Shown here in pieces: positions 9,127 to 9,184 of a stretch of 14,159 nt of DNA. Source of the stretch: a virus. Taxonomy: Duplodnaviria > Heunggongvirae > Uroviricota > Caudoviricetes. A program made the position numbers and the translations under genes. The stretch lies in IMG/VR virus record IMGVR_UViG_2859821903_000004, positions 1 through 14,159 of that record. One strand, written 5' to 3'. The stretch's first letter is position 1; each line of letters starts with the position of its first letter. Below the pieces are notes generated by a model. It worked only from the letters and a program-made list of their open reading frames with translations, did no database searches and was not told where the DNA came from.

Positions 9127-9184
9127 TGTGTGAAGTACCAGTTGGCGGCATCGGTTTAATTGCTGGCTGATGTCCGCCCTTTTT
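9127..9184 (+). ncRNA. dicF: Candidate DicF-like small RNA ending in an intrinsic terminator
   Basis: ...GTGAAGTACCAGTTGGCGGCATCGGTTTAATTGCTGGCTGATGTCCGCCCTTTTT has a GGCGGCATC / GATGTCCGCC stem followed by a T-run. It resembles my recollection of DicF (..TTTGGCGGTATCAGTTTTACTCC..CTGCTCTGCCGCCCTTTTT) and lies downstream of dicA-ydfA as in Qin. The 5' end is uncertain. Confidence 0.4.

Follow-up and report, generated by a model that had tools for sequence, protein, structure and literature searches.

DicF is a small RNA (sRNA) that regulates ftsZ, xylR and pykA and belongs to the dicBF operon of the Qin prophage, and dicF-like sequences in Rac and other prophages were reportedly noted already by Faubladier and Bouché in 1994. 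RprA, in turn, is a core-genome, Rcs-controlled sRNA. DicF is Hfq-dependent, and its 3′ region pairs with the ribosome-binding site of ftsZ (PMC5069750); a 72-nt form of DicF has also been described (PMC9438474). The Rac prophage encodes KilS, an sRNA that was predicted from Hfq RIL-seq, verified by northern blotting and found to be Hfq-dependent and to accumulate in stationary phase (Bar et al. 2021, PMC8175672). KilS has its own transcription start site (TSS) at 1,418,502 and counts yncL among its RIL-seq partners (PMC8175672), and an RNase E site has been mapped at nt 32 of KilS, position 1,418,471 (supplement of PMC8175672). Processed RprA comprises the last 47 nt of that RNA (PMC9262595). 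No paper linking KilS with DicF or RprA was found in the literature searched.

The stretch of DNA considered here (the window, 14,159 nt of the viral record IMGVR_UViG_2859821903_000004) drew attention through an earlier note, which proposed a candidate DicF-like sRNA at 9127-9184 downstream of dicA- and ydfA-type genes. When compared with the RNAs introduced above, this element is best read, judging by its sequence, as a rare variant of KilS.

Genomic Setting of the Element

By their Pfam content, the surroundings of the element are a lambdoid immunity and replication region (Table 1), and DicA matches were also found in related loci by tblastn. Between the promoter-like site at 8683-8712 and the element, the terminator scan found no other terminator on the plus strand. 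The leader that lies upstream of the KilS-type start (8947-9089) shares about 95% identity with the stretch of Rac adjoining sieB, a gene that is absent here; this leader holds a CCACC-N10-GGTGG hairpin together with a CGCTGTAGA motif, faintly reminiscent of boxA, and matches no Rfam family.

On the downstream side, an IS1 insertion sits 86 nt beyond the terminator and divides the element, along with its conserved flank, from a module composed of isrK, the C4 antisense RNA and a Rha-family gene (isrK-C4-rha). The uninterrupted arrangement is preserved in E. coli FDAARGOS_943, in which the element is identical, IS1 is missing and the isrK-C4-rha module comes directly next. Within the long Rha-family ORF, the residues assigned to Pfam Phage_ASH (aa 14-105) are exactly those translated from isrK and C4; since this match corresponds to translated RNA genes, the start of the ORF, and possibly the Phage_ASH family too, may be over-called. 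Insertion sequences occur throughout the window (2354-3567, 11103-12277, 12303-13016 and 13298-14159): one IS3-family element carries an ALIL frameshift pseudoknot (2635-2751, 116 bits), a second IS3-family element is recognizable by HTH_Tnp_1 and rve, and further IS1 and IS600-like copies were revealed by BLAST against related loci. Such an abundance of insertion sequences is in keeping with a Shigella-type genome and with a prophage in decay.

Table 1. Features of the window around the element, with their coordinates and the basis of each assignment.
Feature	Position	Strand	Basis or remark
DnaB-like helicase	5444-6661	-	Pfam
HTH_36 replication protein	6854-7378	-	Pfam
YdaT-like	7469-7891	-	Pfam
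P22-Cro-like	7875-8102	-	Pfam
CI/DicA-like HTH repressor gene, upstream of the element	8179-8586	+	Pfam HTH_3, Phage_CI_repr
Sigma-70-like promoter site	8683-8712		Promoter scan
DUF1391 (YdfA/YdaF-like) gene, last CDS before the element	8789-8941	+	Pfam DUF1391 2.4e-29, PHROG 751
Possible KilS-type extended -10 promoter	9075-9083	+	TGTGAAATT here, TGTTAAATT in Rac (-12 T to G)
Full KilS-homologous unit, 95 nt	9090-9184	+	From GTGGGAG (= mapped KilS start) to the end of the T-run
RprA-like core and candidate seed AAATAACGACATTGCTGTGTGAAGTAC	9112-9138	+	Alignment with K-12 rprA and KilS
Predicted RNase E processing site	9121/9122	+	Cut between GAC and AUUGCUG
GGCGG; CCGCC	9144-9148; 9174-9178	+	Read from the sequence
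Terminator hairpin	9144-9178	+	13 bp, 8-nt apical loop UAAUUGCU (9157-9164), U bulge at 9173
C9179 and U5 (T5 at 9180-9184)	9179-9184	+	Tail of intrinsic terminator, possible Hfq-binding 3′ end
Near-invariant 3′ flank AAAGTGAATTTTGTGATGCGGTGAATGCGGCTAAGCGCACGCGGCACAGTTAAAA, 54 nt	9185-9238	+	Common to all cassette types
IS1 insertion	9271-10038	+	IS1 ends and 9-bp target duplication TGGGTGGGA at 9262-9270 and 10039-10047
Rha-family regulator, long ORF	10140-10979		isrK and C4 inside its N-terminal third
isrK	10191-10267		Rfam, 64.7 bits
C4 antisense RNA	10292-10379		Rfam, 78.6 bits

KilS of Rac as the Closest Relative

The best match of the element in K-12 lies not in Qin but in the Rac prophage, between sieB and kilR (88.8% over 171 nt), and the matched stretch is the ncRNA kilS (b4833, 1,418,405-1,418,502) of the curated MG1655 record. 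The homology runs over the full length of KilS and includes both its ends, namely the GTGGGAG start and the CCGCCC-U5 end. When 9090-9184 is aligned with the 98-nt KilS of K-12, 85 of the 102 columns are identical, nt 1-43 match at 42 of 43 positions, and the 3′ arm of the stem and the tail are the same; the remaining differences are restricted to the linker before the stem, which reads GAAGUACCAGUU in the window and GUAGUCCU in KilS, and to the top of the hairpin, where the 8-nt loop of the window stands against UUUUUUUCUUGAAGUUCG in KilS. The upstream leader, the 3′ flank and the sequence at the mapped RNase E site are shared as well. The two loci differ in their neighbours, as the window has no sieB upstream, IS1 lies 86 nt downstream, and the module behind it is isrK-C4-rha instead of kilR, so that the element does not lie in the 5′ UTR of kilR; a near-identical allele (L029) does precede that gene.

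The G equivalent to the KilS TSS is found at 9090. An independent promoter for this position is uncertain, because the extended -10 reads TGTGAAATT instead of the TGTTAAATT of Rac, and this -10 was not called by the promoter scan; the Rac version is present in other copies of the window allele (L045, L067). The gene may be silent in the window, given the missing -12 T of this -10 and the many IS elements that have invaded the prophage. The RNase E site of KilS corresponds to 9121/9122 and, by analogy, RNA made from the window would be cut there, thus yielding a processed form of about 63 nt (9122-9184). This predicted interval nearly equals the one delimited in the earlier note, and the functional unit probably begins upstream of it, either at about 9090 (KilS-type) or at 9121/9122 (RNase E-type).

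The Hairpin and Its Tail

The GC-clamped hairpin followed by C-U5 at 9144-9184 is confirmed as a real feature. In the MFE structure calculated with RNAfold, 9144-9178 is composed of GGCGGCAUCGGUU, the loop UAAUUGCU and GGCUGAUG, followed by the U bulge and CCGCC (as DNA letters, GGCGGCATCGGTT-TAATTGCT-GGCTGATG-T-CCGCC), and the C-U5 tail is the same in DicF and KilS. The 63 nt from 9122 to 9184 fold with -23.8 kcal/mol (z = -4.17), a stability attained by 0 of 200 shuffles, and the full unit 9090-9184 folds with -32.5 kcal/mol (z = -2.07). A generic terminator scan also picks up the hairpin at 9144-9184; however, its total of two sites against 1.7 expected is not above chance, and therefore the case for a real hairpin feature rests on homology, that is, on the same slot and flanks in 137 collected copies and on the Rfam DicF match at 9129-9179 (E = 2e-4). 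The stem, the loop spacing and the T-run were correctly described in the earlier note.

In the MFE fold of a wider region, the hairpin is enclosed by a long-range helix (9096-9112 with 9211-9225) that would be a possible RNase III substrate, as in Qin. This helix is a prediction of the folding model only: the fold is not better than those of shuffles (z = -0.77), and natural variants carry uncompensated changes in it, without covariation.

An RprA-Like 5′ Arm

Upstream of the hairpin, the element resembles a different sRNA. The sequence AACGA(C)AUUGCUGUGUG is common to RprA and the arm of the window; KilS and RprA share 16 nt (AUUGCUGUGUGUAGUC, the 16-mer ATTGCTGTGTGTAGTC), of which the window keeps the 11-mer ATTGCTGTGTG, and the alleles termed type J have 20 consecutive nt in common with RprA. 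The core reads AACGA-AUUGCUGUGUGUAGUCU in RprA (K-12 rprA, L140 573-678), AACGACAUUGCUGUGUGUAGUCC in KilS (K-12 KilS, L138 1906-2003) and AACGACAUUGCUGUGUGAAGUAC in the window, whose seed diverges from RprA after nt 11, with GUGUGAAGUAC instead of GUGUGUAGUC. Counted on the K-12 sequence, processed RprA begins at AUUGCUG, and the RNase E site of KilS falls at the equivalent position.

In contrast to this core, neither the 5′ half nor the terminator hairpin of RprA is similar to the window element. When the Rfam RprA model (RF00034, gathering cut-off 70 bits) was applied, KilS, with its nearly identical core, gave a weak match of 28.1 bits (E = 0.25), and no RprA match was obtained in 8940-9300 of the window up to E = 10. 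From these comparisons, the RprA similarity of the KilS-type arm is a matter of a shared module and not of family membership. Because the seed of the window is altered after nt 11, targets shared with RprA or KilS are not assured. A 39-nt RprA probe matched 7,585 places in 5,425 E. coli genomes, about 2,160 of them beyond rprA itself.

A Family of Alleles in One Slot

With the conserved 3′ flank as a probe, 13 genomic and 120 viral-contig loci were retrieved, which together with the window and the K-12 references amount to 137 copies with 47 distinct upstream sequences. By their hairpins these copies can be sorted into about 12 types, and by their 5′ arms into about 5; all of them lie between DUF1391-type genes on one side and DicB-YdfD, KilR-YdaE or the Rha module on the other, in mixed combinations. 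When folded one by one, every hairpin type forms a hairpin followed by C-U5. In 35 distinct hairpins, stem ranks 1-5 (GGCGG/CCGCC) do not vary, except for the compensated GGUGG/CCACC of type F, while ranks 6-12 show 4-6 different pair types in a rank-by-rank count whose pairs are canonical by construction; in other words, a hairpin is retained in each type, with an entirely different upper stem and loop. RNAalifold, applied to a MAFFT alignment of 18 hairpin types, supported 3 pairs only, because bulges and differing loop lengths put the stems out of register, and for this reason the per-sequence folds and the rank-by-rank count were used.

The flank itself (9185-9238) shows a column identity of 0.92-1.0 across 79 distinct sequences, of which only 9177-9199 is forced by the retrieval probe, and it is more conserved than the body of the sRNA in Qin- and Rac-type contexts alike. 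It contains two GTGAAT repeats and, in Qin, holds the RNase III site from which the 72-nt DicF arises.

Three different arms were seen joined to the DicF loop, and the KilS-type arm is combined with at least four hairpins. For instance, the genuine ftsZ-pairing hairpin of DicF is joined to a KilS/RprA-like arm or to a third arm (CCAUGUGUAGUCUU) in L094 (6225-6276) and L113, which represent type J, and in L018 (4747-4798), which represents type F; these combinations pass the Rfam threshold for DicF. Since the DicF hairpin is thus found with a KilS/RprA-like or a third arm, arms and hairpins reassort independently. The window allele is rare, with 5 of 5,426 complete E. coli genomes matching at 100% over 65 nt and 17 at a coverage of at least 80%, and its combination of arm and hairpin is also present in a few viral contigs and in Shigella flexneri (L005). 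Among the E. coli strains that carry the allele are FDAARGOS_943, FDAARGOS_944 and O121 201805972. Members of the family, of which complete E. coli and Shigella genomes hold roughly 10,000 copies, are found in inducible phages.

Taken further, these patterns allow the tentative and still rather doubtful proposal that the slot occupied by dicF or kilS in lambdoid prophages of Escherichia and Shigella would be a modular, recombining sRNA locus, in which arms and cassettes are exchanged within nearly invariant flanks. One arm family (KilS, type J and, in diverged form, the window) would copy the seed of processed RprA, by which prophages would tap into or compete with the RprA regulon, and the window would represent a retargeted member with a new combination of arm and loop.

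A KilS-Family sRNA or a Terminator Only

The reading that we favour, and consider moderately probable, is that the element would be an allele of the KilS family of sRNAs, and that its hairpin would in addition serve as a terminator or attenuator of the early operon. On the basis of sequence, fold, homology, synteny and modular variation, we infer that the RNA would be expressed, processed at 9121/9122 and bound by Hfq, with targets unlike those of DicF. The element would then be an allele of the prophage sRNA gene that is called kilS in Rac and dicF in Qin, placed in the early operon of a decayed lambdoid prophage of the Rac/Qin type, under the control of a DicA-like repressor. The GC-clamped hairpin and U5 would act as an intrinsic terminator that sets the 3′ end of the RNA and reduces read-through into the module behind it, here isrK-C4-rha/antirepressor, displaced by IS1. 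The RNA may arise by two routes, either from a KilS-type start near 9090, with a product of about 95 nt, or from operon transcripts cut by RNase E at 9121/9122, with a product of about 63 nt. Its single-stranded 5′ arm (AUUGCUGUGUGAAGUACCAGUU) would be a diverged copy of the seed that opens both processed RprA and processed KilS, and its hairpin a scaffold of the DicF type with a different loop. Such an arm on such a scaffold points to an Hfq-type base-pairing RNA with targets that would resemble those of KilS and processed RprA more than those of DicF.

The main rival, which we regard as unlikely, holds that the element acts in cis only, as an intrinsic terminator or attenuator of the early operon comparable to the lambdoid tL, and that the released RNA has no role in trans. 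Conservation among the alleles, which is confined to the base of the stem, the U-run and the flanks, with loop and upper stem differing freely among the roughly 12 types, agrees with this, as the variety of loops could mean that the loop is unconstrained; likewise, no target is supported computationally, and the hairpin closely precedes genes with toxic or regulatory products (dicB, kilR, rha), into which read-through needs to be limited. However, two alleles of the same slot are established Hfq-dependent sRNAs, DicF (PMC5069750) and KilS (PMC8175672). Moreover, hairpins of 34-42 nt with an unpaired apex of 7-15 nt, which are seen in all types but E (6-bp stem), exceed what termination needs, and the 16-20 nt of identity with the RprA seed in KilS-type arms, of which the window keeps 11 nt, would be hard to explain for a terminator.

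Relationship to DicF

Judged by slot and sequence, the element is homologous to the dicF locus. Of the gene order dicA-ydfA(BC)-dicF-dicB, the upstream half is present in the form of the CI/DicA-like HTH gene and the DUF1391 gene, which bears out the placement in the earlier note, where the element was said to sit as dicF does in Qin; downstream, the Rha-family gene, and not dicB, follows after isrK and C4. A terminator hairpin with a GGCGG/CCGCC base and a U-run as the 3′ end is shared with DicF, together with the C-U5 tail and a nearly identical 3′ flank. Termination followed by RNase E processing, which is the established biogenesis of DicF, would apply to the window element as well.

The likeness ends at the parts by which DicF is recognized. 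At gathering thresholds, Rfam found no DicF (RF00039, gathering cut-off 48 bits) in the whole window; in E-value mode on 8940-9300 (361 nt), DicF was the sole match, at 9129-9179 with 28.6 bits (E = 2e-4). Under the same model, DicF of Qin (type A) scores 76.7 bits, type J 63.5, type F 61.1 and the Rac element (KilS) 39.1, and among representatives of the hairpin types the cut-off is passed only by those that keep the DicF loop CAGUUyUACUCCGUGrCUGC (61-77 bits). In the window, the ftsZ-pairing segment ACUCCG of this loop is absent: AAUUGCUGG stands where DicF has ACUCCGUGA, and instead of CAGUUUUACUCCG, which in DicF pairs with CGGAGAGAAACU of ftsZ, the loop UAAUUGCU is found, flanked by GGUU and GGCU. 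The alignment with DicF has 39 of 64 columns identical, and the 5′ arm, which is devoid of the UUUCUGGUGACGUU that DicF uses for xylR, differs, as does the loop. Since its score is below the gathering cut-off and the ACUCCG loop has been replaced, the element is not DicF by the criteria of that family. “DicF-like”, as the element had been called, therefore holds for the locus but not for the identity of the RNA, and the covariance-model search recommended in the earlier note went against the latter; the departure of the 5′ part from K-12 DicF, which it pointed out, agrees with the alignment, and its suggestion that a different seed could mean a different target set is reasonable and fits the findings.

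That the element is nevertheless a functional DicF orthologue, which would block ftsZ translation and cause filamentation, is very improbable. The slot, the stem base and the tail of DicF, the sub-threshold Rfam match and a 5′ stem arm (GGCAUCGGUUU) partly complementary to AAACUAU at the start of ftsZ speak for it, but the score of 28.6 bits against the cut-off of 48, with 61-77 for alleles that carry the DicF loop, speaks against it, and so does the missing ACUCCG, which is the anti-Shine-Dalgarno part of a molecule whose 3′ region pairs with ftsZ (PMC5069750). The best short duplex of the element with the initiation region of ftsZ reached -13.4 kcal/mol, weaker than the shuffle mean of -16.9, by a method that does not discriminate: in ftsZ pairing calculations by whole-molecule duplex folding, Smith-Waterman score and windowed short duplexes, not even genuine DicF was separated from shuffles, and the rejection consequently relies on the loss of the validated loop segment. 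On this sequence, the ftsZ mechanism has no support in the window element, and repression of ftsZ through a DicF loop is not expected.

Other targets were approached by similar calculations. In a duplex test with the rpoS leader, the known RprA-rpoS site was outranked by one other site, and duplexes of about -22 kcal/mol were obtained somewhere with every RNA. The best predicted duplex of KilS with the yncL 5′ UTR uses UGUGUGUAG, and the window keeps 11 of its 12 pairs, a result that is not significant on its own. With respect to targets in cis, neither the loop nor the 5′ arm has its reverse complement elsewhere in the window. Because these pairing calculations did not discriminate true from random targets, no target is claimed for the window element.

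Finally, the idea that the stretch is coding, with the hairpin incidental to a 94-aa ORF on the minus strand (8947-9231), has next to no probability and the ORF was rejected as a gene, since, although it stays open (84-97 aa) in the window, Rac and several related alleles despite their differing hairpins, the net length difference of which is 3 nt, it matches no Pfam or PHROG family, its frame is lost in L035, L094, L003 and L018, and the curated MG1655 record has an ncRNA and no CDS there, all of which leaves the earlier statement that no CDS explains the stretch essentially correct.

Implications

The direct stakes of this locus are small, as the sRNA gene concerned is already known from prophages and the allele is rare and probably crippled. 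Its comparison with related loci has a wider bearing, in that DicF and KilS, which are kept apart in annotation and in the literature searched, appear as alleles of one modular locus, of which the Rfam DicF model recognizes only the alleles with the ftsZ-pairing loop. Likewise, the KilS-type arm carries the seed of processed RprA, and conservation is higher in the 54 nt that follow the terminator than in the RNA. Provided that the modules are functional, sRNA seeds could be exchanged among prophages in the manner of immunity or tail-fibre modules, and KilS-type RNAs could act on, or titrate, targets of RprA such as rpoS, csgD, narP and ricI.
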